Positions 2,884 through 64,000 of a stretch of 64,000 bases of DNA are shown here, piece after piece. The DNA is taken from NCBI GenBank assembly GCA_045541115.1, contig JAZQIM010000014.1, positions 65,832 to 129,831 of the forward strand, in the 5' to 3' direction. This DNA is from Candidatus Aphodoplasma sp. Lineage in GTDB: Bacteria > Bacillota > Clostridia > UBA1381 > UMGS1253. Both the position numbers and the translations under genes were made by a program. The notes below the pieces were generated by a model, which saw only the letters and a program-made list of their open reading frames with translations, made no database searches and was not told where the DNA came from. Each line of letters starts with the position of its first letter. Positions within the stretch are counted from its first letter, which is position 1.

Positions 2884-3687
2884 TTACATACCACTTCCGG
2901 CAACTATTTCTGTGATTTCCTGTGTGATGCTACCTTGTCTTGCGCGATTATATTCAAGTGTAAGATTTTCAATCATCTCCGACGCATTCTTTCCTGCAGA
3001 ATCCATCGCAAATCTTCTTGCCACAACTTCACAAGTAAAGCTCTCTCTTACTGCCTCAAGTATCTTTGAAGCAACATATTCTTCGATAAGCGCCTCAAGT
3101 ATCGTCTTTTCATCAGGTTCAAAAATGATATCCGCCTTAGAGTTAATATCCTTTTTCTCCAAAGGCATTATCCATGTTATCTGAGGCTCCTGAACCATCA
3201 TCGAAGTATATTTCGTTGATACAATTCCAACCTTTTCGTAATTGCCTTCTTTAAAGTCATTGCATAATTTTTTTGCAAGTTCAATCGCCTGTGAATACGA
3301 ATATCCTTCAGCCTTTGTAATCTCCTTTTTATATCGTTCGGATGCTCTCTTGCCGATAGGATAAATATCGTTAAAATCAATTTTTTCAGTCACTTTAAAT
3401 ATGTTTGAGTTATATCCACCCGCAAGTCCGCGGTCACCTGCAATTACGATGAGGCAAATCTTTTTTTCCTCGCCACTTTTCATATATTCGCTTTTCTCGC
3501 ACACTCTCGACGATGAAAGCATATCAATCGTTGTTTGCATAGCGCTCGCGTACTGACGGCTCTTTGTCATCGCATTCGTGGCACCTCTGATTTTTGCAGA
3601 TGCAACAAGCCCCATCGCCTTTGTCAAGTGCAAGGTTGAGTCGACACTTTTTATTCGGTTTTTCAAGCTTTTTGTATCTATACCCAT
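2884..3687 (-). CDS. atpG: F1 ATP synthase gamma subunit
   Basis: 267 aa, located between atpA and atpD. Gamma-type terminal helices (IKSVDST...TKAM at the N-terminus, ARQGSITQEITEIVAG at the C-terminus). Confidence 0.9.
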   Translation of the reverse strand: MGIDTKSLKNRIKSVDSTLHLTKAMGLVASAKIRGATNAMTKSRQYASAMQTTIDMLSSSRVCEKSEYMKSGEEKKICLIVIAGDRGLAGGYNSNIFKVTEKIDFNDIYPIGKRASERYKKEITKAEGYSYSQAIELAKKLCNDFKEGNYEKVGIVSTKYTSMMVQEPQITWIMPLEKKDINSKADIIFEPDEKTILEALIEEYVASKILEAVRESFTCEVVARRFAMDSAGKNASEMIENLTLEYNRARQGSITQEITEIVAGSGM

Positions 3688-3697
3688 AGTATCACTC

Positions 3698-5185
3698 CTA
3701 CATCTCGCAAAGAGCTTGTTTTAGTGTTTTGACATCTTCATCATCAAAGAAATTATCTTCAATTCTCTTTAGCCATGCTTCATACTTTCTCTCAAGTAAA
3801 TCGTATAATTTCTGCTCATAATCCGAAACCTTGTCTACTGCTATATCATTAAGGTATCCGTTAACAACAGCATAAACGATTGCCACCTGACATCCAACTC
3901 GAACAGGCGCATTTTTCTTTTGCTTTAACACTTCAACGATTCTTTCGCCAAGTGCAAGACGCTTTTTCGTATCTTCATCAAGGTCACTTCCAAACTGTGC
4001 AAACGACTGTAGCTCACGGTATTGTGCATACAAGAGCTTAAGTTCGCCCGATACTTTCTTCATCGCCTTAAGCTGCGCAGAACCACCAACACGACTTACA
4101 GATATACCGGGGTTTATTGCCGGCATAATACCTGCGTGGAAAAGCTCTGTTTCAAGGAAAATTTGTCCGTCAGTTATCGATATAACATTAGTCGGAATAT
4201 ACGCCGACACATCGCCCGCCTGTGTTTCGATTACAGGAAGTGCAGTTATCGAGCCGCCACCATATTCCGGTGCAACACACGCCGCTCTTTCAAGCAATCT
4301 TGAGTGAAGGTAAAATACATCGCCGGGATATGCTTCCCTTCCGGGCGGACGACGAATAAGTAGTGAAAGCGCACGATATGCAATCGCATGCTTTGACAAA
4401 TCGTCATAAATTATAAGAACGTCTTTGCCTTGTTCTCTGAAATACTCTGCCATAGCACATCCTGAATATGGCGCAATATACTGTATTGGCGCAGTTTCAG
4501 AGGCCGATGCAGATACTATGATTGTATACTCCATTGCTCCGGCTTTTTCAAGGTCATTTGCAAGCTGTGCAACCGCCGTATTCTTCTGTCCGATTGCAAC
4601 ATATATGCATATAACATCTGTATTTTTCTGATTTATAATTGTATCTATTACTATCTCTGTTTTACCTGTCTGTCTATCACCTATAATAAGCTCTCTTTGT
4701 CCTCTGCCAATCGGAATCATACTGTCAATAGCTTTGATTCCTGTTTGCAGCGGAACAGATACGCTCTTTCTTTCGATTATTCCGGGGGCTTCCGATTCAA
4801 TAGGTCTTGTCTGTGTTGTTTCAACAGGTCCTTTTCCATCTATAGGATTTCCAAGCGCACCTACAACTCTGCCTATTAACTGCTCACCAACCGGCACAGA
4901 AACAACCTTTCCTGTGCGATAAACTTTTGAACCTTCGTGTATATCGTCTGAATCAGACAAAAGTGCAACGGAAACTGTTTCATCTTCAAGATTTTGCGCC
5001 ATACCGATACTGCCGTTTTCAAACTCCAAAAGCTCGCTTGCCATACATGAACGAAGTCCATATACCTTTGCAATACCGTCGCCAACTAAAATGACACTGC
5101 CTGTTTCCTGCATCTCCATTTTCGACTCATAATTTTTAATTTGTTCTTTTATAATCTGGCTGATTTCATCAGGTCTTATATTCAT
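3698..5185 (-). CDS. atpA: F1 ATP synthase alpha subunit
   Basis: 495 aa. Walker A GDRQTGKT; alpha-type sequence throughout. Confidence 0.97.
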
Positions 5186-33043: not shown

Positions 33044-33715
33044 TTACCAAACAAATGGTATTAAACGATACTTTATTTTTTTCTTGTATTCACAATATCC
33101 ATCCAGATTCTTCTCAAGAAATTCTTCTTCGCTTTTTAGTCTTTTAATAATTATATATGGATATGCAAGAAAAATTATAAATGAATATATCGAGCCCAGG
33201 ACAAGTGGCATCGACAAAAACATAAGCAGTGTCGCACTATACATCGGGTGTCTTACAACACTATATAGTCCCGTTTCAATAACCCTCTGATTCTCACAAA
33301 CTTCAATAACGCGGCTAAGATATTCGTTTTCCCTAATCACTTGTGCATAAAGAATATATCCGCAAAGAAAAATTATTACAGCAATAATAACCGCCTCTTT
33401 GGGCAAGGTGTACCATCGAAAACGAAATGTCAATCCCGCAACGATAAGCCCTGTTAAAAACATAATTGCGCTTAATATAACAAGCACCTTTTGTTCTCGA
33501 TGTTTTTCCGTTGCTTTCAATCTCTTTTTCAATAATTCAGGCTTTTTTAACATCATCACAATTCCTGTCAAAAGCATTGGCACAAACAAAATTCCCATAA
33601 ATAGCCATGCATTTTTGAAGAAAATGTCTCCGGCAGATAAAAAAAGCGACAAGCCAACTAAAATTATACCTGACAGCAGCTTTGTTATCGCCTGAACAAA
33701 TAATTTCATACTCAT
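33044..33715 (-). CDS. Isoprenylcysteine carboxyl methyltransferase (ICMT/PEMT)-family membrane protein
   Basis: 223 aa, 5-6 TM segments, C-terminal block ETGLYSVVRHPMYSATLL ... EEEFLEK. Appears to have its own -10 TATAAT about 50 nt upstream. Confidence 0.65.
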   Translation of the reverse strand: MSMKLFVQAITKLLSGIILVGLSLFLSAGDIFFKNAWLFMGILFVPMLLTGIVMMLKKPELLKKRLKATEKHREQKVLVILSAIMFLTGLIVAGLTFRFRWYTLPKEAVIIAVIIFLCGYILYAQVIRENEYLSRVIEVCENQRVIETGLYSVVRHPMYSATLLMFLSMPLVLGSIYSFIIFLAYPYIIIKRLKSEEEFLEKNLDGYCEYKKKIKYRLIPFVW

Positions 33716-33770
33716 ATGTTTTCTCCATAAATTTTATTTACCTTTTGGAAGCATTAACGCCTTGATTATA

Positions 33771-33803
33771 AAGACTGTGTAAACTGGATGACAGTCTTTT
33801 TTT
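33771..33803. repeat. Junction module H, copy 1 (hairpin aagactgt/acagtctt plus T7 on the plus strand), upstream of the ICMT-like gene
   Basis: 8-bp perfect stem, 12-nt loop, T-run on the plus strand. About 80% identical to 36431-36462. Confidence 0.7.
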
Positions 33804-33805
33804 AA

Positions 33806-33843
33806 ATTGCGAGGCATAAGGTTTAGATGCAGATCTTTTTTAA
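33806..33843. repeat. Junction module D, copy 1 (3' side of the RT gene)
   Basis: attgcgaGGcataaggtttagatgcaGATCttttttaa. It shares attgcga and a 17-nt identical core (33815-33831) with copy 2. Confidence 0.8.
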
Positions 33844-33866
33844 CTCCATATCACATAAAGTTAAAG

Positions 33867-34805
33867 TTAAAAAATATTTTGCTTTTCGGTAAATTTGATT
33901 TTATCTATCAACCATTTTTTATAACCCATCATTTCGACATTTGCCGCATCTACTGATAAAACATAATTAACCTTTCCAAGCAATTTTTTCAAATAATCTT
34001 GTTCACTTATATCGAGCTGTTTTTTCTGTAAATGAGATGCTACACCAAATTTTTTACAGTAATACAATTCCTGTCTGATTTTCTTTCTGTATGACAACGA
34101 TGTATTTATTTTTTCATTTACTATAATACCTGTAACAATCTGTTTTTGTCCTTTGCGAGCAACAGTCGTTTTTGCATCATTAAGATAAAAACCCATTTTT
34201 TTAAGCTCTTCTTTTACAAACTCAATCACTTCTCTGTGGTTAAAAGCACCTGAAAAAGTCATATCATCGCAATATCTGCTATATCTTATTTTTCTTTCTT
34301 TACACCATGCACCAACTGCATTATCAAAGTCTTTCATAATAATATTTGAAATAATCGGTGATGTTGGTGCACCCTGAGGCAAAGCATCTTTATATAAGCA
34401 AAGTATTGATAACAAAATACGATTCTTTTCTGAGTATTTTTCTTTAACAAAAACCTTTTCTTTAACCATAGGATAAATTATGTGGTCAAAGAAATGTCTG
34501 ATATCCAATTTAAGTATAGTATTTTGCTTAAGGTGTGGATAAGCATTCTTAACGGTTGAAGCACCATATTTATATGCTGTTGCATATGGTGAAACCTCTT
34601 CATATACAAGAAGTTTTTCAGCTATTCTTTTTTGCACTGCCTTCAAAAATTCATTTGGAACAGAAAGTTCTCTATATTCTCCGTTCTTTTTCAAAATTTT
34701 TGTTTGATAATAGTGTGAATGAATATGGTTGCTAAGCGAGTATAATGCTTTTGCTGAAACACCAAGGTCATTCGTCAAAGAGGAAAGCTCCTTATATACA
34801 ATCAT
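33867..34805 (-). CDS. Retron-type reverse transcriptase
   Basis: 312 aa from ATG 34805 (AGGAGG 8-13 nt upstream). RT blocks LDIRHFF and LPQGAPTSPIISN, and catalytic YCDD (nt 34263-34274). Retron signatures NAYPH (NAxxH, nt 34533-34547) and VTG (nt 34128-34136). No maturase or endonuclease domains. Confidence 0.88.
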   Translation of the reverse strand: MIVYKELSSLTNDLGVSAKALYSLSNHIHSHYYQTKILKKNGEYRELSVPNEFLKAVQKRIAEKLLVYEEVSPYATAYKYGASTVKNAYPHLKQNTILKLDIRHFFDHIIYPMVKEKVFVKEKYSEKNRILLSILCLYKDALPQGAPTSPIISNIIMKDFDNAVGAWCKERKIRYSRYCDDMTFSGAFNHREVIEFVKEELKKMGFYLNDAKTTVARKGQKQIVTGIIVNEKINTSLSYRKKIRQELYYCKKFGVASHLQKKQLDISEQDYLKKLLGKVNYVLSVDAANVEMMGYKKWLIDKIKFTEKQNIF

Positions 34806-34830
34806 TATTAAACTTTCCTCCTTTCTGAAT

Positions 34831-35009
34831 GTTGTGGAACAAAACAATGTGAATTACGATGTTGTGTAGCTGTATTTTAGCCCATGAAGTGGGCATTTAT
34901 ATACAGCGAAATCAACTTCGTATGAACGAAGTGAATACTTATAAATGTTACTTCCCAACAACGACTCGTTGTCGGTGTCAAAGTTTATTGACTTGCTCTT
35001 ATGTTCCAC
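34831..35009 (-). ncRNA. Predicted retron msr-msd non-coding RNA
   Basis: Read on the minus strand. a1 is GTGGAACAtAA (35009-34999) and pairs with a2 TTtTGTTCCAC (34844-34834). Candidate branching G at 34998 (or 34996, in an AGC). Hairpins at 34977-34992, 34955-34975, 34915-34932 and 34869-34907. a2 ends 29 nt before the RT ATG. A TATAAT box lies 7 nt upstream of a1. Confidence 0.55.
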
Positions 35010-35015
35010 TTTTTT

Positions 35016-35021
35016 ATTATA
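35016..35021 (-). promoter_or_regulatory. -10 box (TATAAT) positioned to start transcription at the a1 arm of the predicted retron RNA
   Basis: The minus strand reads tttcagTATAATaaaaaaGTGGAACA. The upstream region is AT-rich and has no good -35 hexamer. Confidence 0.35.
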
Positions 35022-35086
35022 CTGAAATCACTATCCTATAAAAAGGACAATGAAACAATAAACCAATTTGAGAACTACATATTACT

Positions 35087-35108
35087 TTTCGACATTATTC
35101 GACATTCT
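35087..35108. repeat. Junction module U, orphan copy upstream of the retron promoter (no ORF, RBS lost)
   Basis: Minus strand: gaaTGTCGAAtaaTGTCGAAAag, a tandem TGTCGAA at a 10-nt period. Confidence 0.7.
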
Positions 35109-35112
35109 TTAT

Positions 35113-35149
35113 ATTGCGACACATAAGGTTTAGATGCAAGTGTTTTTAA
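35113..35149. repeat. Junction module D, copy 2 (3' side of the 136-aa ORF, upstream of the retron RNA)
   Basis: attgcgaCAcataaggtttagatgcaAGTGtttttaa, with core at 35122-35138. Direct orientation, 1307 bp from copy 1. Confidence 0.8.
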
Positions 35150-35187
35150 GATCAAGTTCGTGGTCAGTAAGGAGTAAAAACATCTTT

Positions 35188-35598
35188 TCATTGGAACCTA
35201 TTCGTCGGAATACTTCCCCACCTTAATCCGCTATACAATAATGCATCAATGTGCGAAATCAAATTTAACAACACCATTTCTCTATTTATATCGAACTTAT
35301 GCTCATCGTCACCTTTAAATTCGTGAGATTTTTCATCTAAGTTTACAAATGTCTCCAAGGTTATATATTCTAACAGATTTGCTTCTGGTCCCACAATAAT
35401 ATCACCTTTTTCAAATGAGTAATATGGATTTGCAAACCCCACTTTTTCGGTTCCGTCGAGCAATGTGCATTTTATTTTCATACCATGACAATGCTTGATG
35501 GTAATTCTATTAATACTTTCTGTTTTTTCAATTTTACCATTTTTATAGTAAGTAATTATATTCATGTTGGTATATAACCTTTCTACAATATTTGACAC
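35188..35598 (-). CDS. Hypothetical protein (125-136 aa), directly upstream of the retron RNA
   Basis: The ORF track start at 35598 is a GTG; ATG 35565 (MNIITYYKNGK...) is an alternative start. Beta-rich N-terminal half and helical C-terminal half. No family recognised. Confidence 0.45.
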   Translation of the reverse strand: MSNIVERLYTNMNIITYYKNGKIEKTESINRITIKHCHGMKIKCTLLDGTEKVGFANPYYSFEKGDIIVGPEANLLEYITLETFVNLDEKSHEFKGDDEHKFDINREMVLLNLISHIDALLYSGLRWGSIPTNRFQ

Positions 35599-35600
35599 AC
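35578..35600. repeat. Junction module U, diverged copy at the 5' end of the 136-aa ORF
   Basis: Minus strand gtgtgtcaaatattgtagaaagg matches the 35904-35924 copy at 16 of 22 positions by my alignment. Confidence 0.45.
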
Positions 35601-35614
35601 TTTGCTATGCTTTA

Positions 35615-35642
35615 TGTTAAGTTAGGACAAAAGATTATTCTG
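35615..35642. repeat. Junction module G at the 3' end of the 85-aa ORF (covers the last codon, the stop and ~20 nt)
   Basis: Minus strand: cagaataatcttttgtcctaacttaacat. Confidence 0.7.
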
Positions 35643-35892
35643 TAACCTCTACAATTCCTTTTGACTCTAAAAATCCAATTAGCTTTTCAAGATATGCTAA
35701 TCGTTCGTGGTTTATCGGCGGATTTTCCATATATCCTAAATCACCACCAACACTTTCATAACTTTCTTCGCAATAACACATATGCAAAAGATATCCCCAT
35801 TCCAATTCAGCGCTACCTTCATTCAATAGCTTTTCAAATGTTTCAATCGGCTCATTTTCAAACATCATCATTATTAAATCATGTTCTTTCAT
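35635..35892 (-). CDS. Hypothetical small acidic protein (85 aa), immunity-protein-like in size and composition
   Basis: Good RBS (AAAGGAGA 9 nt before the ATG). No motif recognised. Confidence 0.45.
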   Translation of the reverse strand: MKEHDLIMMMFENEPIETFEKLLNEGSAELEWGYLLHMCYCEESYESVGGDLGYMENPPINHERLAYLEKLIGFLESKGIVEVTE

Positions 35893-35903
35893 TTTAAAGT
35901 TCT

Positions 35904-35924
35904 CCTTTCGACATCTTTCGACAC
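35904..35924. repeat. Junction module U at the 5' end of the 85-aa ORF (includes its RBS)
   Basis: Minus strand: gTGTCGAAAgaTGTCGAAAGGAGa, followed by the ATG. Confidence 0.75.
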
Positions 35925-35937
35925 ATCCATATGGTTC

Positions 35938-35965
35938 ATGTCGGATTAGGACAAAAATTATTCTG
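35938..35965. repeat. Junction module G at the 3' end of the PsiE-like ORF
   Basis: Minus strand cagaataatttttgtcctaatccgacat matches about 22 of 26 positions of the 35615-35642 copy. Confidence 0.7.
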
Positions 35966-36386
35966 CCTTCTCATTATCAGCAATCTCTACAAAACCGTCG
36001 GGGGTTTCTACCATATCATGACGATTGAACAAAAATCTTCTGACAACAAAAAGTATCGCAATAGCTGCAACTGTAATCAAATTTTCCCAAGGGGCAGCAT
36101 GTCCTACTATCAACTGTCGGGCAAGGGCAAACGCTAAAACCTCAATAATGGTTTCAGGGGTGTGCTTGCAAAGCATTTTTATAAGCTCAGCACCAATAGC
36201 AAGTGTAATTGCCCTATCCAAAATCACGACAAGCGAATCTATACCGTGTTCAATAAACGAAATATTAAACATATCTATCACTATCCACACAGCCAGAATG
36301 ACTACTGCAAGGCTCACAATAAGTGATATAAAAAGCTCTATAAGATAGCTTATCTCAAACATTTTGTCTTGAAGTTTTTTTCTCAT
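35958..36386 (-). CDS. PsiE-like (phosphate-starvation-inducible E family) small membrane protein
   Basis: 142 aa, four TM segments. The pattern AIGAELIKML ... LAFALARQLIV.H..PWE.L...AIAILFVVRRF parallels E. coli PsiE as I recall it. Confidence 0.5.
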   Translation of the reverse strand: MRKKLQDKMFEISYLIELFISLIVSLAVVILAVWIVIDMFNISFIEHGIDSLVVILDRAITLAIGAELIKMLCKHTPETIIEVLAFALARQLIVGHAAPWENLITVAAIAILFVVRRFLFNRHDMVETPDGFVEIADNEKAE

Positions 36387-36430
36387 AATATTTTCTCCTT
36401 TGTATTTGATTTTGCATTTATCCGTTTATG

Positions 36431-36462
36431 AAGACTGTATAATCCGGATGCCAATCTTTTTT
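36431..36462. repeat. Junction module H, copy 2 (degenerate), upstream of the PsiE-like gene
   Basis: aagactgtataatccggatgccaatctttttt compared with aagactgtgtaaactggatgacagtcttttttt. Confidence 0.65.
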
Positions 36463-37006
36463 AACAATAATTAGTGTAGAAATATCCCTTATTTACATAT
36501 TCACTAACCAAATCTGATTTTTTATCTATTTCACCTGTAACCAACTTTAAATATGTATAAAATATACGTATTTCTTCTCTATCCAAAGTCATAGTAAAAA
36601 CATTTGAACCCATAGCACCATCGTCGCACCAAAAATGAATATTAAAATCAACAGATATATCCAATGTTACAGAGCCATCCTTATACCAAACTTTACCCGG
36701 CTCACTGTATAATGTTGTTATTGGACTCATATCAAATTCAAAATCGGGTTCTGCAAATCTAACAGTGCATCTTTCTTTCATATTTCCTTCTAGCAAATCT
36801 TTAAATACACTTTTCAAATAGTCTATTTCATCGTTTAGAAAAGCCTCCCAACCTTCAATATTATAATTAATGTACTTACTTTTTAAGGAAAAGTTTGTGT
36901 TGCACCAATCATAATCTACAGTCTCTTCAGTCGGTTTTTTATAATTATATATTTCAAACCATAAGTCCACATCACATATATTCATATGCAATTTCAACTT
37001 TTCCAC
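36461..37006 (-). CDS. Hypothetical protein, tentatively WapI-like immunity protein
   Basis: 181 aa. The segment DYDWCNTNFSLKS...FLNDEIDYLKSVFKDLLEG recalls the WapI pattern DYWDANWLK...L..DLKRFYESLQKL. The true start may be an internal TTG or ATG (about 36994 or 36985). Confidence 0.35.
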   Translation of the reverse strand: MEKLKLHMNICDVDLWFEIYNYKKPTEETVDYDWCNTNFSLKSKYINYNIEGWEAFLNDEIDYLKSVFKDLLEGNMKERCTVRFAEPDFEFDMSPITTLYSEPGKVWYKDGSVTLDISVDFNIHFWCDDGAMGSNVFTMTLDREEIRIFYTYLKLVTGEIDKKSDLVSEYVNKGYFYTNYC

Positions 37007-37008
37007 CT

Positions 37009-37031
37009 CCTTTCAACAAATTTCGACATTC
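37009..37031. repeat. Junction module U at the 5' end of the 181-aa ORF (includes its RBS)
   Basis: Minus strand: gaaTGTCGAAAtttgTTGAAAGGAGG. Confidence 0.7.
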
Positions 37032-37067
37032 TTACTATCATCACCTTATCTTAAGCCAAAAACTCTA

Positions 37068-37385
37068 TTAGTCGTCTGCATCTTCATCAAACGCTTCAAT
37101 ATAAAAGCTTACAGGTCTAAAGCCGTCATTACATGAAATCATTGCCGACCTTTTATTTTTCATCCATCCATTATATAAATTTTCGCCGCCATGTGACAGG
37201 GCCATTACAAAAGAGGACATACTTTCCCAGGCACTATCACATAAACCATCGGGCTTTTTCCATCCGTTTGCGATAAAAGTTTGCCCTTCCTTCAAATCGC
37301 AGGCATGCTCTATCGGATTTTCATATTTTTCTATTAAATCATCATAACGGGCCATTCTCATAACTGTTATTCTGCATTTTTTCAT
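37068..37385 (-). CDS. TIGR04076-family small protein
   Basis: 105 aa. MKKCRITV...C.L.EGQTF...P.G.C..AW......CNDGFRPV.F.IE matches my recollection of the TIGR04076 consensus. Confidence 0.55.
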   Translation of the reverse strand: MKKCRITVMRMARYDDLIEKYENPIEHACDLKEGQTFIANGWKKPDGLCDSAWESMSSFVMALSHGGENLYNGWMKNKRSAMISCNDGFRPVSFYIEAFDEDADD

Positions 37386-37441
37386 AGTAATTCTCCTTTT
37401 ATAGTGCTACACTATTGACAAAATCAAAAATCTATCAATTC

Positions 37442-37470
37442 ATTTTATCATTAAATCTACGGATAGTCAA
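37442..37470 (-). promoter_or_regulatory. Sigma-A-type promoter for the small-ORF array (TTGACT-17-TAAAAT)
   Basis: Minus strand: -35 at 37470-37465 and -10 at 37447-37442. It lies downstream of the GGDEF gene terminator and about 55 nt upstream of the TIGR04076 ATG. Confidence 0.5.
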
Positions 37471-37488
37471 TTTCATCCACAAAACTTT

Positions 37489-37525
37489 ATAAAAAAAGCT
37501 TTAAAACAATACGTTTTAAAGCTTT
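37489..37525 (-). terminator. Intrinsic terminator after the GGDEF gene, separating it from the small-ORF array
   Basis: 13-bp stem aaagctttaaaac/gttttaaagcttt with T7 on the minus strand. Confidence 0.8.
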
Positions 37526-37598
37526 TCGTTAAAGCACATTATTTCTTTCCGCAAACAAGTTCTATGATTAAAGCACCCATATCAATCATTAGAACAAA

Positions 37599-39920
37599 TT
37601 AGTCTTTGGCAAAAATCCAAAGGGTTTCATCGGCATCCTCACTGTTTTCATTTAGACTGTATATACTCAAAATTACCGTTTCTCCGTTCATTTTCTTATA
37701 CGTTATCTTTGGCGTTAACCCTTCTGCTATTTCTCTCTTTATTGCATCATAATTCAAAAAACTTATGACAGCCCTATGGAAATCAGGGTGCACATGCTCA
37801 TCTATGTATTCTTTCAAAAGATGAGAAAAATTATTTTCGTCCTCATTATATCCGAGATAAGACGGCATAAGAATGCGATGTGCATTGTCACTTACTAAAG
37901 AAACTCTGTAAATTCCATTATAATGTTCTTTTAAAACAGAAAGCATTGCATCAATTTCTCTAATTCCCGTTTTCGTCTGAACATATTTTTTATCAACATC
38001 TTTAGCTATGGTGCTCTGTTCCTTGTTCTGATAATACTGCGCTTTCGCCTCATACATTCTTATTTCCGCTTCGCGCACCATTTCTTCACAATTTGTATTC
38101 TGCTTTCTATATGACATACCGATAGCAACCTTGTAGTCCGTAGATTCTAATTGTTTAATAAATATTTGAACTTTTCTCTTTGCCCGCTCCTGTGTAACAT
38201 TTTTTGCAAAAACCAAGAACTCATCGCCACCCATACGGTAAACTCTATGCCCAAAAAATACTTCCTTTAGCGTATTTGCAATATAAATAAGCATTTCATC
38301 GCCTGCAGCATGGCCGTATTTGTTATTTCTTAAATGAAGTTCGTTAACATCAATATAAACACATGCAAAATCTTCCGGTTTTTCTTCATCGAGCAACAGA
38401 ATATCCTTTTTGTATGATACACGATTAAGTGCTCCGGTAAGTGAATCGGTCACAGCTGCCGTTTCCGTCCTATTTAAATGATTTTTATTATATATCGCTA
38501 TAGAAAAACATACTGCTACATCTTCTAACAGGTCTCTTGCTGTGCGTTTTTTCTTTGTGTTTATAACACCAAGAACACTTGCATGATTGTTTTTATCTGT
38601 AATAGTTGCAAACGAAACATGATCTATTTTGTGTTCTTTCAACAATTCATAAAATTTTATGTTTGTTTTCATAAGGTGCTTATCAGGTTTAATATGCATA
38701 AATCCTACAGTTAGGTGGCTGGCACTGTACAGGTTTGCAGCATAGCGGAAAAGCTCACCAAGAAAGTACTTCTTTTCTTCACCTGCAAGAAGGTGAACTT
38801 TGAACGAAGGCATAACATAGCTATAATCTTCTCCGTCGGTATCAACAAAAAACGCAGATCTTGATGATGATAAACCTTGTACACTTTTTAATGCCTCAAA
38901 CACATTCCCATGTTGCTGATTGATTTCCAAAAGAAGTTTTCTAATCCGCGACGCATATGATATTACCTTTGCACGACGTTTTTCTACACTTAAAACAAAA
39001 AGCAAATACACTACGATAATCAATATCATTAATGCAAAAGTTACAAGCAGTATTCTTGAAATCTCGTGTGTTCTTGCAAAAACCTGAGACTCATACCTGG
39101 CAAGCAAAATGCCCCAGTCAAAATCTTCGATTGTAGAATAGTGAACATATAAATCTTCACCTGTAAATATTGATTTAAACGAAGAATATCCTTTATCTGT
39201 TGTAACAAGTTGCTCATATGAATAATCATCATTATATTTACGGTTTTTTAACTCTGATATCTCACCGGGATATCTGTTTATAGTATCAATAAGATATTTT
39301 CCGTCTTCTTTATCATAAACAAAAAGCTGTGCATCAAACTCTTTGGCCATATCATTATACTTTTTATTGATTGTTTCAATCTTAATAATGCCATACATCA
39401 TACCAACCGTTTTCCCATTCACCCTAATGGGAACTGCACTTCTGATAACCTCTTCGCCGGGAATAGAATAGCTTTGTGTTCTGCCGGTAATATGTTCGCC
39501 AATAAGCGCTTCATCTGCAAAGGAAATTTTGCCATCTAAATCATATGTTCCATCTTTTGTAATAAAGGTGTTATCCGGATTTAAAATTCCAATTCTTGAA
39601 AACAGACCAATGGGTTTAAACGAATCAAACATAAGACTATAACTTTCTCCGCCGGCATATAGTTTTGCCGCAAAGTTTGCCATCGTAATAAGATTTTCAC
39701 GATCAGACTTCATCTGGAGTGTCAAGTCGTCTTTAATCTGTTTCGTCTGTATATGAAGCATCTCATACGCCTCATTTTCTGCCTCATAGTAAAAAGAAGC
39801 AACCAACGATAAAAACACCACACATATTAGAAACGCAGCGACGATCGTGTAAAAATTATTATTTTGTCTATGCTTTTTTCCCCCATATTTTGTAGCCATT
39901 CTGTCAACATCTTCTTTCAT
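37599..39920 (-). CDS. Membrane sensor diguanylate cyclase (extracytoplasmic Cache-like domain, cytoplasmic linker domain, GGDEF domain, extra C-terminal domain)
   Basis: Two TM helices flank a ~250-aa extracytoplasmic region. The GGDEF domain has an intact YRMGGDEF. About 120 aa follow the GGDEF domain. Confidence 0.8.
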   Translation of the reverse strand: MKEDVDRMATKYGGKKHRQNNNFYTIVAAFLICVVFLSLVASFYYEAENEAYEMLHIQTKQIKDDLTLQMKSDRENLITMANFAAKLYAGGESYSLMFDSFKPIGLFSRIGILNPDNTFITKDGTYDLDGKISFADEALIGEHITGRTQSYSIPGEEVIRSAVPIRVNGKTVGMMYGIIKIETINKKYNDMAKEFDAQLFVYDKEDGKYLIDTINRYPGEISELKNRKYNDDYSYEQLVTTDKGYSSFKSIFTGEDLYVHYSTIEDFDWGILLARYESQVFARTHEISRILLVTFALMILIIVVYLLFVLSVEKRRAKVISYASRIRKLLLEINQQHGNVFEALKSVQGLSSSRSAFFVDTDGEDYSYVMPSFKVHLLAGEEKKYFLGELFRYAANLYSASHLTVGFMHIKPDKHLMKTNIKFYELLKEHKIDHVSFATITDKNNHASVLGVINTKKKRTARDLLEDVAVCFSIAIYNKNHLNRTETAAVTDSLTGALNRVSYKKDILLLDEEKPEDFACVYIDVNELHLRNNKYGHAAGDEMLIYIANTLKEVFFGHRVYRMGGDEFLVFAKNVTQERAKRKVQIFIKQLESTDYKVAIGMSYRKQNTNCEEMVREAEIRMYEAKAQYYQNKEQSTIAKDVDKKYVQTKTGIREIDAMLSVLKEHYNGIYRVSLVSDNAHRILMPSYLGYNEDENNFSHLLKEYIDEHVHPDFHRAVISFLNYDAIKREIAEGLTPKITYKKMNGETVILSIYSLNENSEDADETLWIFAKD

Positions 39921-40050
39921 ATGTATGATTATGTATTGATATTGTACTATAAATCCCTAATTTTTTCAAGTATATATTTTTAAATATTATCATCTCATCG
40001 AACTTATTTATGAAATAAAATTAAACAAACAAAAAAAGTAACAAAAAAAC

Positions 40051-40079
40051 TAGACATTTTATGGTAAGAGTGCTATAAT
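40051..40079 (+). promoter_or_regulatory. Promoter for nagB (TAGACA-17-TGcTATAAT, extended -10)
   Basis: -35 at 40051-40056, TGn at 40071-40073, -10 at 40074-40079. Confidence 0.5.
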
Positions 40080-40140
40080 AAATGCGTTAGATTATTTTTA
40101 TAATTTGCTATTTACAAACAAATAAGGAGAGTGCTTTAAA

Positions 40141-40926
40141 ATGAAACTTGTCATTAAGAAAAATTATGATGAAATGAGCGCATGGGCAGCACAGCACATT
40201 GCTGATGCAATTAATAACCACAAAGAAGCTCGCCCATTTATACTTGGTCTTCCAACCGGTTCATCGCCTCTTGGTGTGTATAAAAAGCTCATCGAAATGA
40301 ATAAGGCAGGCGCCATAAGTTTTAAAAACGTCGTAACTTTCAACATGGATGAATATGTAGGTCTTCCAAAAGAACATGACCAGAGTTATTGGTATTTTAT
40401 GCACGATAACTTCTTCAATCACATTGACATCCCAAGCGAAAACATCAATATTTTAAACGGTATGGCTGATGACCTCGAAGCTGAGTGTCAGCGTTATGAA
40501 GACAAAATCACTTCATATGGAGGCATAGACCTTTTCCTGGGTGGCAGCGGTGTAGATGGTCACATTGCTTTCAACGAGCCATTCACTTCTCTTACATCCC
40601 GCACAGGTATACGCGCACTTACTCAGGATACACTAATCGCAAATTCACGTTTCTTTGATAATGATCCGAACAAAGTACCAAAGACTGCTCTTTCTGTTGG
40701 TGTTGGTACAGTATGTGACTCTAAAGAGGTTCTCCTCGTTATAAACGGACATAACAAAGCACGCGCACTTCGTCACTGTGTTGAAGGCGGCGTTGACCAT
40801 GCTTGGACAATAAGCGCACTTCAGCTTCACAAATGTGGCGTTATCGCTTGTGATGAAGCTGCATGCGGCGAATTAAAAGTTGACACATACAAGTATTTTA
40901 AAGAAATTTACAAAGACGAGAAATAA
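40141..40926 (+). CDS. nagB: Glucosamine-6-phosphate deaminase
   Basis: 261 aa. [18 protein letters not shown] and [14 protein letters not shown]-type blocks. Confidence 0.94.
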
Positions 40927-40945
40927 TTATTTAAACTATAACGCT

Positions 40946-40981
40946 AAAACCTCCCATGATTTATTTCATGGGAGGTTTTTT
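40946..40981. terminator. Terminator after nagB (also serves the convergent flavodoxin gene)
   Basis: 12-bp stem aacctcccatga/tcatgggaggtt followed by T6. Confidence 0.85.
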
Positions 40982-40988
40982 GCAAGGA

Positions 40989-41522
40989 CTATTCATCACA
41001 TTTTATATAATTTACCAACTCGGCAATCTGTGTGCGGTCAGAAAAATCACCATCTGCATCACACAACTCTATCAGTAGTTTTTCCATTTCCGTAGGCTCT
41101 TTTTTCGAGCCCATTATCTTCTTTAAAGTTTTCAAAGCCGCTCTATGTACTGCACTAAGCTCATTTATAATCATTTTGCCTGTAAAATTAAAAATCTTTA
41201 CACCTTCGGGCAATCCGTTTTTGAAATTCTTTTCAATAACAAGTTTATCATAATACTCACGGCAATCAAGCGGCGTTATGCCCGTAGTGTATATTGCTAT
41301 TTTTTTATTTTTAAACCTGTCAATATTCTTCATGATAAGGCTTACACCATTTATGATTTCTGCATACAGCCCTCCTCCGTATATTATTGCATCATATTTT
41401 TCAAGTTCATCTATCGTAATCTCTTTTGCATCTGCTGTTTTACAATTAAGTTCTTCCCCTATCCATTCGGCATATGTTTTCGTTGAACCGTATTTCGTTT
41501 TGTAAACTACAATTGTATTCAT
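40989..41522 (-). CDS. Flavodoxin-domain protein
   Basis: 177 aa. N-terminus VVYKTKYGSTKTYAEWI is typical of flavodoxin-like (HemG/flavodoxin_5-type) proteins. Confidence 0.55.
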   Translation of the reverse strand: MNTIVVYKTKYGSTKTYAEWIGEELNCKTADAKEITIDELEKYDAIIYGGGLYAEIINGVSLIMKNIDRFKNKKIAIYTTGITPLDCREYYDKLVIEKNFKNGLPEGVKIFNFTGKMIINELSAVHRAALKTLKKIMGSKKEPTEMEKLLIELCDADGDFSDRTQIAELVNYIKCDE

Positions 41523-41696
41523 AAAAACAACCTCCCTTATGCTAGTATATTCAGTATATATGATTGTTAAGTATATTTAACCTATCATAAAGTCACAAAT
41601 AAAAATCATTTTACTTACCTTATCACAAAAATCAGCGACAGTCAATTCCAAAGCAAAAACCCTCTTCGTAAGTCCTTTTAAAATCACTGTTTATTC

Positions 41697-62803: not shown

Positions 62804-64000
62804 TTAATAACTTCCAAAATATACAAATCCCAAGTCAGTCATGTCTAACGATATACCATACATAGCAAGAACTTGATTTGACTCACGAAGGCCTATTTTT
62901 GTAAATGCTGTGCTTAATTCTTGGTCCTCTTTTTTTACAGTATTTCCTGTAGGTGAGTCATAATAATGGAAAACAATATTAGAGCTTTCTCTAAATGTTG
63001 TAGGGTCAATATCTGCAGTTCCTACAGTATTTTTGGGACTAGCTACAGGATCTACTAAATATAAATACATTACACGCTTTAGCTTGTTTGTTCGTTCAGG
63101 TGCACCATCCAAGTAAATTAAGTTGGCAACCGAATCTCCAGTATCAAAATCACAAACAGTTTCTATATATATTTCATCGTTTTTTTCATCATATACTAGA
63201 GCTGTATAATGATACATGCTACCTTCACGAACTCTATCCGTTGATAATTTATATAAGTAACCATTTATCGGGGTGGTGTTGTTCTTTATAGCATTACGGA
63301 GAATATCCATATTGCTCCCTGCAATAAATTCAAATGAAAAAACGTCACTATCTTGTGATTCAACACCATTTTTAACAGAGGTAACTATAATATTGTACTT
63401 CTTTCCATTTTCTAAGCCGTAGAATGTAGCAGAATATTCGCTATCGTGTGTCATCCTTATTTGTTCACCAGTGTTCTCATCGTCGTCATACCAAAAACTT
63501 TCTTCCCCAGCTTCTTGGTAATAAAAATAATAATAATCTGCGCTCTCTACCGCATCCCACTGAATATATACGGCATTACTATCTTGTTTAACAATTCTAA
63601 TATTTGTAGGTGGAAGAATAAAGTTATTTTCATCCATTACAGCACTAAGTGTTTTGCAAACGGAATGATCAAAGTCAAGCGGAATATATCGCATAGGAAT
63701 TGCCAAATTCAAGTTCTGTCCCTCTACAAACGAAGCCGAAGTTATACCTATAACTTGTGCTTTCTCATTCAGCAAAGCTCCGCCACTACTTCCGTGTGAA
63801 ATCGGTGCACTTATTTGATAGTATTCTACATTTCCTAACGCAACCTTTTTATTAGAAAGCAAGCCCTCGGAAATTGTATTTTGCAAACCTAACGGACTTC
63901 CGATAGCATATACTTTTTGTCCCGTATGCACACTTTCATCACTAGCTATATCAAGTGTTAAGAAGCCATCGCCTTTAACTTGTATAATTGCCCAATCTTG
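62804..64000 (-). CDS. Trypsin-like (S1 family) serine protease with an FN3-like domain and a C-terminal domain of unknown function. Partial; the N-terminus lies beyond the right edge.
   Basis: Active-site serine context ISHGSSGGALLN. The reading frame stays open upstream of the ORF-track Met to position 64000 (…QDWAIIQVKGDGFLTLDIASDESVHTGQ…). Confidence 0.7.
   Translation of the reverse strand, partial: QDWAIIQVKGDGFLTLDIASDESVHTGQKVYAIGSPLGLQNTISEGLLSNKKVALGNVEYYQISAPISHGSSGGALLNEKAQVIGITSASFVEGQNLNLAIPMRYIPLDFDHSVCKTLSAVMDENNFILPPTNIRIVKQDSNAVYIQWDAVESADYYYFYYQEAGEESFWYDDDENTGEQIRMTHDSEYSATFYGLENGKKYNIIVTSVKNGVESQDSDVFSFEFIAGSNMDILRNAIKNNTTPINGYLYKLSTDRVREGSMYHYTALVYDEKNDEIYIETVCDFDTGDSVANLIYLDGAPERTNKLKRVMYLYLVDPVASPKNTVGTADIDPTTFRESSNIVFHYYDSPTGNTVKKEDQELSTAFTKIGLRESNQVLAMYGISLDMTDLGFVYFGSY

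Follow-up and report, generated by a model that had tools for sequence, protein, structure and literature searches.

Organization of the retron locus

The locus described here lies in a 64,000-nucleotide stretch of the genome of Candidatus Aphodoplasma sp. (assembly GCA_045541115.1, contig JAZQIM010000014.1, positions 65,832 to 129,831 of the forward strand), hereafter called the window, in whose own numbering all positions are given. It holds a retron consisting of a reverse transcriptase (RT) of 312 amino acids (aa) and a noncoding RNA (ncRNA), embedded in a run of small genes. Between positions 30 and 40 kb, every gene of the window is encoded on the minus strand. In order of transcription, a GGDEF/dCache protein (37599-39920) is followed by a 105-aa TIGR04076-family protein, a WapI-like protein, a PsiE-like membrane protein, an 85-aa protein, a 125- or 136-aa protein, approximately 340 nt of noncoding sequence, the RT, a 223-aa ICMT/PEMT-like protein, and an RpiR regulator (Table 1).

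Retrons are commonly framed as tripartite systems composed of an RT, an ncRNA, and a toxic effector that is restrained by multicopy single-stranded DNA (msDNA). The initial annotation of this locus sought the effector in the two genes flanking the RT/ncRNA module, namely the small upstream protein and the downstream ICMT-like membrane methyltransferase, while allowing for an effector-less or trans-acting retron. Both open reading frames (ORFs) were confirmed on the minus strand at the coordinates given there. The comparisons reported below make it very probable that the RT and ncRNA together make up a complete retron with two components, which belongs to the Ec107 (Retron-Eco5)-like orphan group and has no effector gene beside it, its neighbours being bystanders. 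Neither flanking gene appears to be the effector, because homologues of both are missing from all 95 loci with a homologous RT, the ICMT-like gene is present in a sister strain that has no retron, and a 98.4%-identical copy of the retron lies among other genes.

Classification of the reverse transcriptase

The RT matched RVT_1 in Pfam (4.5e-22), with no extra domain in the same scan. All of its top PADLOC matches were retron RT models, the best being RT_Ec107-like (2.4e-128), followed by RT_III-A (5.4e-101). The analogy with type IV retrons drawn in the initial annotation, in which a multi-transmembrane (TM) ICMT-like partner would replace the two-TM (2TM) effector, did not hold, as RT_IV was not among the best 25 of the 59 PADLOC matches of this RT. 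Against the NCBIfam model retron_St85_RT, the protein scored 217 bits (2.7e-64), just below the 235-bit cut-off. The NAxxH, YxDD, and VTG motifs of the retron clade were present as NAYPH (residues 87-91), YCDD (178-181), and VTG (224-226) and were invariant or nearly so across 20 homologues; in the alignment of homologues (A1), residues N87, A88, H91, Y178-D181, T225, and G226 were invariant.

The RT showed 44% identity (E 5e-81) to the Escherichia coli Ec107 RT, which was located in the pyrE-slmA interval of 382 out of 5426 complete E. coli genomes, and 2858 homologues were recovered at E <= 1e-20. By profile score and pairwise identity, with no tree behind the grouping, the RT belongs to the Ec107-like (Retron-Eco5) group rather than to type IV or the other effector-linked types. 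Among the viral contigs of IMG/VR no close homologue was found, the best match being 42% identical, which agrees with Mestre et al. 2020 (PMC7736814), where Ec107 is the one E. coli retron not tied to prophages.

Noncoding RNA and promoter region

Approximately 200 nt upstream of the RT gene could be aligned across 26 loci. RNAalifold analysis of this alignment predicted 23 base pairs, 16 of them with compensatory changes on both sides, including a long-range helix between a1 (GTGGAAC, at about 35008-35002) and a2 (GTTCCAC, at about 34840-34834). The RNA directly upstream of the RT is therefore predicted to have the a1/a2 inverted repeats and stem-loops of a retron, and one of its internal hairpins contains an invariant GCGAGTCGC core/loop region. 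A nearly invariant AG adjoins a1 (34999-34998) across the aligned loci and makes 34998 the candidate branching G; both this site and the ncRNA ends are placed by the alignment. Because Rfam returned no family at the gathering threshold in the whole 64-kb window, the ncRNA is supported by comparative alignment instead. These alignments show that selection acts on both the RNA structure and the catalytic motifs of the RT.

TATAATA, containing the putative retron -10 box, was conserved in most of the 26 aligned loci, and no canonical -35 element passed the promoter scan. Promoter-like sites in the region were not above chance (25 vs 23 ± 5.4), so promoter calls rest on conservation. A 51-aa ORF over the ncRNA (34854-35009, minus strand) was considered as a hidden small effector and rejected as not coding, because its clusters reflect RNA conservation: the indels are not multiples of three and the compensatory changes are of the RNA type.

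By analogy with established retron biochemistry, pairing of a1 and a2 would fold the ncRNA and position the conserved G adjoining a1 (candidate 34998); the RT would then prime from the 2'-OH of this G and copy the msd stem-loop into msDNA.

Genomic neighbourhoods of homologous reverse transcriptases

A genome scan with one genome per species yielded 80 loci with RT homologues of 31-67% identity. The closest RTs (78-99% identity) added 15 metagenome loci in 7 further contexts, giving 95 loci in total (31-99%). In tblastn searches, for which twelve window proteins served as queries at the 80 genome loci, no homologue of the ICMT-like or 125-aa protein was found within approximately 6 kb of the RT at any of the 95 loci. 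The RTs with 78-99% identity occupied unrelated settings: SpoIIGA and an acetyltransferase flank the RT in one of them, SpoVAD and GlgB in another; elsewhere it neighbours AraC regulators, precedes a HAD hydrolase and HflX or a DUF4288 gene, or belongs to a different array of small genes.

All-against-all clustering of the ORFs within 4 kb of the RT revealed no family common to at least 3 of the 27 distinct contexts in which the RT is at least 50% identical. Near these RTs, clusters recurred only where artefactual ORFs cover the conserved ncRNA. As a positive control, the same clustering linked PRTase_III-A to 12 distant RTs, upstream of which it lies, and placed SWIM_XIII beside 4 RTs of myxobacteria; the phosphoribosyltransferase (PRTase) was seen only beside RTs at most about 40% identical. 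In the window itself, a PADLOC scan of 59 ORFs found no PRTase or other retron-type effector, and no PRTase-like gene was present among the 8 ORFs neighbouring the RT. No neighbouring protein recurs with the RT, and neither a conserved effector gene adjoining or fused to the RT nor a specifically associated protein cluster was detected. This outcome supports the effector-less or trans-acting alternative of the initial annotation and speaks against its proposal of a novel effector in one of the two neighbours. That annotation had foreseen abandoning both genes if homologous RTs proved to be linked to a different, known effector; neither gene is indeed conserved beside these RTs, but the close homologues have no such effector either.

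Candidate partners were found by the same clustering for two intermediate RT branches. RTs with 41-49% identity have recurrent upstream neighbours (L022:94-1764, L023:4017-5687; L040:4270-5424, L044, L047), namely a 556-aa OLD/ABC-like ATPase (PADLOC mad3/AriA/ATPase-Toprim_I-B-like) in Bacilli and Mollicutes-type metagenome-assembled genomes, and a PLD/DrmC-like protein in Flavobacterium. These proteins may be cis effectors of sub-branches near the orphan group.

Strain comparison and cassette boundaries

The boundaries of the retron were delimited by comparison with two other genomic settings. At locus L087, the RT is 99% identical, and the DNA similarity to the window, at 98.4%, is confined to exactly 35105-33806. 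The L087 retron has a DUF4288 gene downstream, and its upstream gene is not homologous to the 125-aa protein. The presence of near-identical copies in different contexts thus implies recent transfer.

Contigs L096 and L097 represent a sister strain with a backbone of 96-97% nucleotide identity and an ICMT-like protein of 98% aa identity. Both retain the gene order ICMT-RpiR-FAD oxidoreductase-140 aa-HutP-Cmk together with the ICMT promoter sequence, and both lack window positions 35930-33806, the stretch that holds the retron and the genes for the 85-aa and 125-aa proteins. The PsiE-like cassette, 99% identical in both contigs, abuts the backbone and joins the ICMT promoter region directly; homology in L096 resumes at 33805. 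The WapI cassette (37035-36430) is also missing from both contigs, and in L096 its absence forms an exact gap between the 105-aa and PsiE-like genes.

Each small gene is interpreted as a cassette because of the intergenic comparison and the L096 and L087 breakpoints. The initial annotation had described a module bounded by direct repeats, with the small upstream protein outside it, and this description was accurate: the repeat is 43 nt long and 84% identical between its copies at 33798-33840 and 35105-35147, which are spaced 1307 nt apart, and the small protein has cassette boundaries of its own. Read against the junctions, the repeat is the type-1 3' junction half carried by both the 125-aa and retron cassettes, and 1307 is the length of the retron cassette. 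On these breakpoints, the retron is a self-contained cassette of 1307 bp (35112-33806), one unit of an array of small cassettes that varies between strains. Besides a conserved promoter region of its own, it contains the ncRNA and, as its only credible ORF, the RT gene. The GC content of the array was 0.30-0.35, compared with 0.38-0.44 in the flanks.

Table 1. Features of the retron and the surrounding array, in window positions
Feature	Position	Coding region	Strand	Basis or content
Retron cassette, 1307 bp	33806-35112		-	5' junction motif, conserved promoter region, ncRNA, RT gene, 3' junction half
Retron RT, 312 aa from ATG (MIVYKEL...)	33867-34805	33867-34805	-	Profile matches and motifs
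Putative retron ncRNA (msr-msd)	34830-35010		-	Alignment of upstream regions; ends inferred
Putative retron -10 box, TATAAT	35016-35021		-	Sequence; inside conserved upstream block
5' junction motif of retron cassette, ATAAAGAATGTCGAATAATGTCGAAAAG	35085-35112		-	Motif recurrence upstream of related RTs
3' junction half of retron cassette, …CTGCATCTAAACCTTATGCCTCGCAAT	33806-33840		-	Downstream copy of 43-nt direct repeat
Cassette with 125-aa (136-aa from GTG) protein	35113-35606	35188-35598 (136 aa) or 35188-35565 (125 aa)	-	3' half 35147-35113 is the upstream direct-repeat copy
85-aa gene cassette	35607-35930	35635-35892	-	Junction sequences; missing from L096
PsiE-like membrane protein cassette, 142 aa, 3 hydrophobic segments	35931-36429	35958-36386	-	Pfam PsiE 1.2e-4, just under cut-off
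WapI-like immunity protein cassette, 181 aa	36430-37035	36461-37006	-	Pfam WapI 1.2e-9, 39 bits vs cut-off 27
Array start: promoter-like site and 105-aa TIGR04076-family gene	37036-37473	37068-37385	-	Promoter scan, NCBIfam, L096 copy
ICMT/PEMT-family membrane methyltransferase	33044-33715	33044-33715	-	First conserved chromosomal gene past the array; outside the retron
Promoter-like site of ICMT gene, CTGTCA-18-TATAAT	33765-33794		-	Promoter scan; same sequence in retron-less L096

Flanking genes and candidate effectors

The ICMT-like protein matched Pfam PEMT (3.3e-11, 44 bits vs a cut-off of 25) and ICMT (3.4e-8, 34.2 bits vs a cut-off of 24), and a Kyte-Doolittle scan gave 5 hydrophobic segments, so that its assignment to this family in the initial annotation was well founded. 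Its substrate is left unassigned, because the score against NCBIfam isopcys_mtase (62 bits) was under the 160-bit cut-off. Its family is huge, counting at least 8000 homologues across Clostridia that are mostly 223 aa long and about 70% identical. The gene begins 151 nt past the RT stop codon (33867-33869), the distance noted originally, and the TATAAT reported ahead of it was located at 33770-33765. The suggestion that it may simply be a neighbour proved apt: judged by its retention together with this promoter in L096 and L097, it is an ordinary core chromosomal gene and a bystander to the retron.

All 19 aligned homologues of the small upstream protein start at the ATG at 35565, for which reason the product is likely 125 aa rather than the 136 aa obtained from GTG. 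The gene ends 166 nt before the retron -10 box (35021-35016). No match to the protein was found in Pfam, PADLOC, PHROGs, NCBIfam, or PDB sequences, and an exact-sequence look-up of the window ICMT-like and 125-aa proteins found nothing on record, so homologues were used instead. The 125-aa family is rare (20 homologues) and has the conserved motifs CHGMK, YITLET, and LRWG…PTN. In six loci representing two other genomic settings (L098-L103), its members lie after the gene for a tRNA U5-methyltransferase, and no RT is found close by. The initial annotation had described a protein of no recognizable family, beta-rich at the N-terminus and helical at the C-terminus. The first two features stand, but in the AlphaFold model (pLDDT 91.5) the protein is beta-rich throughout, with two short helices (22-26 and 59-64) and a C-terminal coil. 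A Foldseek search with this model gave weak, non-significant resemblance to Sm/LSm/Gemin6 barrels (best E 0.016, TM 0.42). By its cassette boundaries and distribution, the 125-aa gene is merely the preceding cassette in the array, not a retron partner.

The step of the proposed mechanism that follows msDNA synthesis is its weakest and is drawn from the comparative pattern. No dedicated partner would be involved, and the RT-msDNA particle would act alone or via a universal host factor. We lean slightly towards this possibility, because the cassette moves alone among unrelated contexts in several Clostridia families. The retron-less sister strain, the 98.4%-identical copy with other neighbours, and the 27 contexts together indicate that RT and ncRNA are the whole transferable unit.

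Several points weigh against the conclusion that the retron is complete without a neighbouring effector. RTs more than 78% identical were sampled in only 8 distinct contexts, several of them on short contigs, and a 99%-identical homologue of the 125-aa protein (P0121) lies on a 1.2-kb contig whose context is not placeable. Transcription of the retron may also run on into the ICMT gene, since the promoter/terminator scan gave no terminator between the two. The exchange points within the junctions are not sharp, and homologous recombination between junction repeats would fit as well as a site-specific process. Finally, a dedicated effector may be encoded elsewhere in the genome, of which 64 kb was inspected.

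This last reading, in which the retron works with a dedicated effector in trans, is the strongest rival, and we regard it as unlikely but worth serious consideration. It was raised for the Ec107 branch by Mestre et al. 2020 (PMC7736814), and related RT branches do have cis partners (PRTase, OLD/ABC-like ATPase, PLD-like protein). However, the cassette stands alone in many unrelated contexts and several host families, and a partner would have to pre-exist in each recipient; the PADLOC scan of the window described above also speaks against it, and, according to the same source, most hosts of orphan retrons are without homologues of known retron partners.

It is improbable that the retron is a decaying, non-functional remnant, as the missing partner gene and the lost or eroded cassette junctions of L082 and L083 might suggest. 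Its RT gene has an intact ORF, whose catalytic and retron-specific motifs do not vary among 20 homologues; the number of RT homologues, the compensatory changes in the ncRNA, and the recent transfer implied by the 98.4%-identical copies also argue against decay.

We consider it very improbable that the 125-aa protein is a retron accessory or effector, for instance an Sm-like nucleic-acid binder acting on msDNA. The gene adjoins the retron on the same strand and is absent together with it from L096, and its confident all-beta model weakly resembles the Sm fold. Yet that match is not significant, no homologue occurs near the RT loci, including L087 with its 99%-identical RT, and the family members of L098-L103 exist without an RT. 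Equally hard to credit is an effector role for another cassette, such as the PsiE-like three-TM or WapI-like protein. These share the co-directional array, and small membrane proteins are known as effectors of type IV retrons, but the PsiE-like cassette persists in the retron-less L096 and L097, the WapI cassette varies independently, and neither protein has homologues near other RT loci or a PADLOC match. Least credible of all is the ICMT-like protein as a novel membrane effector, a multi-TM counterpart of the type IV 2TM effectors: it is a membrane protein encoded on the same strand shortly past the RT with no terminator-like site between, but it is missing near all homologous RTs, keeps its synteny and promoter in the retron-less strain, belongs to a very large family of uniform length, lies outside the cassette boundary set by L087 and L096, and has no PADLOC match.

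Both candidates proposed initially can thus be dropped, which saves experimental effort, and the locus yields a precisely delimited 1.3-kb unit for asking what an orphan retron does alone.

Junctions and the cassette array

The junctions between cassettes are approximately 65 nt long and consist of a 3' half, of which there are three sequence types (e.g. TTGCATCTAAACCTTATGYSTCGCAAT), followed by the 5' motif ATGGATATGTCGAAnnnTGTCGAAAGG. Most cassettes begin with ATGGATATGTCGAAnnnTGTCGAAAGG just ahead of the ribosome-binding site. In the window, the tandem TGTCGAA motif gave 2 matches at <=3 mismatches vs 0 in 100 shuffles. The array starts with a promoter-like site, TTGACT-17-TAAAAT with an upstream TG (37470-37442), ahead of the 105-aa protein, which belongs to the TIGR04076 family (9.7e-31) and is 87% identical in L096. 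The 85-aa protein had no family match in Pfam or further family libraries. A TIGR04076-family copy with 78% identity was also observed at L094:8160-8477, two genes downstream of the RT in another small-gene array.

In the window, L087, L088, and L090, the TGTCGAAnnnTGTCGAAA motif precedes the RT start by approximately 300 nt; a degenerate form does so in L081. A junction motif at this distance was thus found in 5 of the 8 closest contexts and was lost or eroded in L082 and L083; no junction motif was found beside more distant RT homologues. The 5' motif upstream of the RT would mark a cassette boundary rather than a translation context, because no ORF follows the motif there. The 3' junction element follows the RT in L087 as well.

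Junction-type arrays were seen in the window (33806-37473, minus strand), L087, L088, L090, L094, and L129, and a metagenome motif scan identified further arrays on short contigs, including L108, L112, L113, L127, L144, L145, L166, L180, and L190. The latter have both junction halves at spacings of 400-800 nt. Array genes elsewhere are small and heterogeneous, encoding DUF4288, DUF4279, RDD, esterase, DUF6036 nucleotidyltransferase, and TdeIII-like proteins together with many membrane proteins and unknown ones. L127 and L129 both carry the DUF4288 cassette of L087, at 90-91% identity, and in L127 an RDD-family cassette adjoins it where L087 has the retron. Some of the metagenome motif matches were set aside as unrelated or chance (L134, L171, and L191, long contigs without arrays), and no recombinase context was obtained from them.

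We also considered whether the junctions are integron attC sites and rejected this, as no stable attC-like hairpins were found. Single-stranded DNA folding was applied to 12 sequences (seven junction regions, five of them on both strands), and 10 of the 12 z-scores were between -0.8 and +1.0. The two below -2 were an AT-rich hairpin at the 3' end of the L087 RT and the WapI/PsiE-like junction, neither of which formed an attC-like stem; the verdict comes from these z-scores and not from a dedicated attC model. No recombinase gene adjoins the array in the window or L096; in the window, the flanking genes encode GGDEF, NagB-like, flavodoxin, short-chain dehydrogenase, ICMT, and RpiR proteins.

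Two structural peculiarities were observed in related arrays. L088 contains another structured repeat of about 94-130 nt, AAAAAAGCCTTCCCCTTGAGGGGAAGGTG…CGGATGAGGTGG…GAAAG, in three copies (L088:1380-1560, 2900-3030, 3700-3770), with copies inserted in the junctions on both sides of its retron; this repeat could act as a terminator module or be a miniature mobile element. In L090, two cassette 3' halves stand in tandem with no gene between them (L090:5600-5700), just upstream of the retron cassette, and look like remnants of deleted cassettes.

Comparison with known systems

The locus adds to a known group of orphan retrons for which the absence of a partner has already been described. In Mestre et al. 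2020 (PMC7736814), the Ec107 branch (clade 2, 59 RTs) is without an associated protein cluster, and the authors suggest that it may have lost a PRTase partner, may rely on unknown effectors in trans, or may serve another function. Ec107 was left out of the defence tests of Millman et al., and a 2026 survey found 'Ec107_like' among the msr/msd models most often detected in metagenome-assembled genomes. The Ec107-like branch is the main exception to the tripartite frame.

As in Ec107/Retron-Eco5, only an RT and an ncRNA are present, as a short insert between unrelated chromosomal genes (pyrE and slmA in E. coli), with no conserved partner gene and no sign of being phage-borne. The host, however, is a gut Clostridia lineage rather than a member of the Enterobacterales, and the close sub-clade (RT >=78%) is flanked by array junctions and behaves as a cassette, a packaging not mentioned in the available text of Mestre et al. 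2020. This cassette packaging of the retron is, from the boundaries described above, what is unusual here. Type III-A retrons (PRTase, with or without a winged helix-turn-helix protein) provide the next-best RT profile matches and share a node with the Ec107 branch according to the same authors, but no PRTase lies beside this RT, beside RTs at least 50% identical, or in the window. Type IV retrons (Ec48/Eco6, 2TM effector) resemble the locus in having a membrane protein gene downstream of the RT; here that gene encodes a core-genome ICMT-family enzyme unlinked to the RT, which is itself outside the type IV clade, and no linked small 2TM protein was found.

The array resembles the rAID-1 arrays of Bacteroidales (Ross et al., bioRxiv 10.1101/471110) in its co-directional, small, low-GC genes, which include predicted immunity proteins (WapI-like here), in its repetitive intergenic sequences, and in strain-to-strain cassette variation. 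An immunity role of the WapI-like, DUF4288, and DUF4279 cassettes is suggested by their family names. In contrast to rAID-1, no XerD-family tyrosine recombinase heads the array at its 5' end in the window or L096, the host belongs to the Clostridia, and the retron and non-immunity genes (esterase, DUF6036 nucleotidyltransferase, RDD protein) are also carried. With integron arrays and clusters of attC sites lacking integron-integrases (CALINs), the array shares promoter-proximal, co-directional, mostly promoterless small cassettes, a conserved boundary element, and the occurrence of the same cassettes in different orders and contexts; its junctions, unlike attC hairpins, are conserved in primary sequence, and no IntI integrase gene is adjacent. 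Because the junctions are without attC-like folds and no recombinase gene flanks the array, it is, on present sequence comparisons, neither an integron nor a rAID-1 array by the defining recombinase feature, and otherwise resembles rAID-1. In literature searches limited to integrons with retrons and to orphan-immunity arrays, no published description of cassette packaging with sequence-conserved junctions was found.

We tentatively suggest, as a possibility short of an even chance, that the orphan retron is cargo of a cassette-array system of gut Clostridia that moves small genes between genomes as discrete units with junctions of approximately 65 nt. If so, an RT and ncRNA travelling alone would imply a two-component module selectable on its own, and the role of 'effector' would fall to the RT-msDNA particle itself or to a universal host factor. 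The array would then represent an uncharacterised route for exchanging small accessory genes, the retron included, among gut Clostridia.

Additional observations

A 4.1-kb segment of the window (37474-41585), encoding the flavodoxin, the NagB-like isomerase, and the GGDEF/dCache protein, is missing from the otherwise 96%-identical L096; a direct repeat suspected around this segment (41585-37474) was not confirmed. In the PADLOC scan of the 59 window ORFs, single matches at E <= 1e-5 were obtained for PD-T4-2_B (8e-35), mad2 (1.7e-20), VakA (4.3e-7), and RT-Protease_XI (7.9e-8; two models), the last of which probably derive from the ORF at 62804-63931, whose product may be a protease, judging by its N-terminal sequence.

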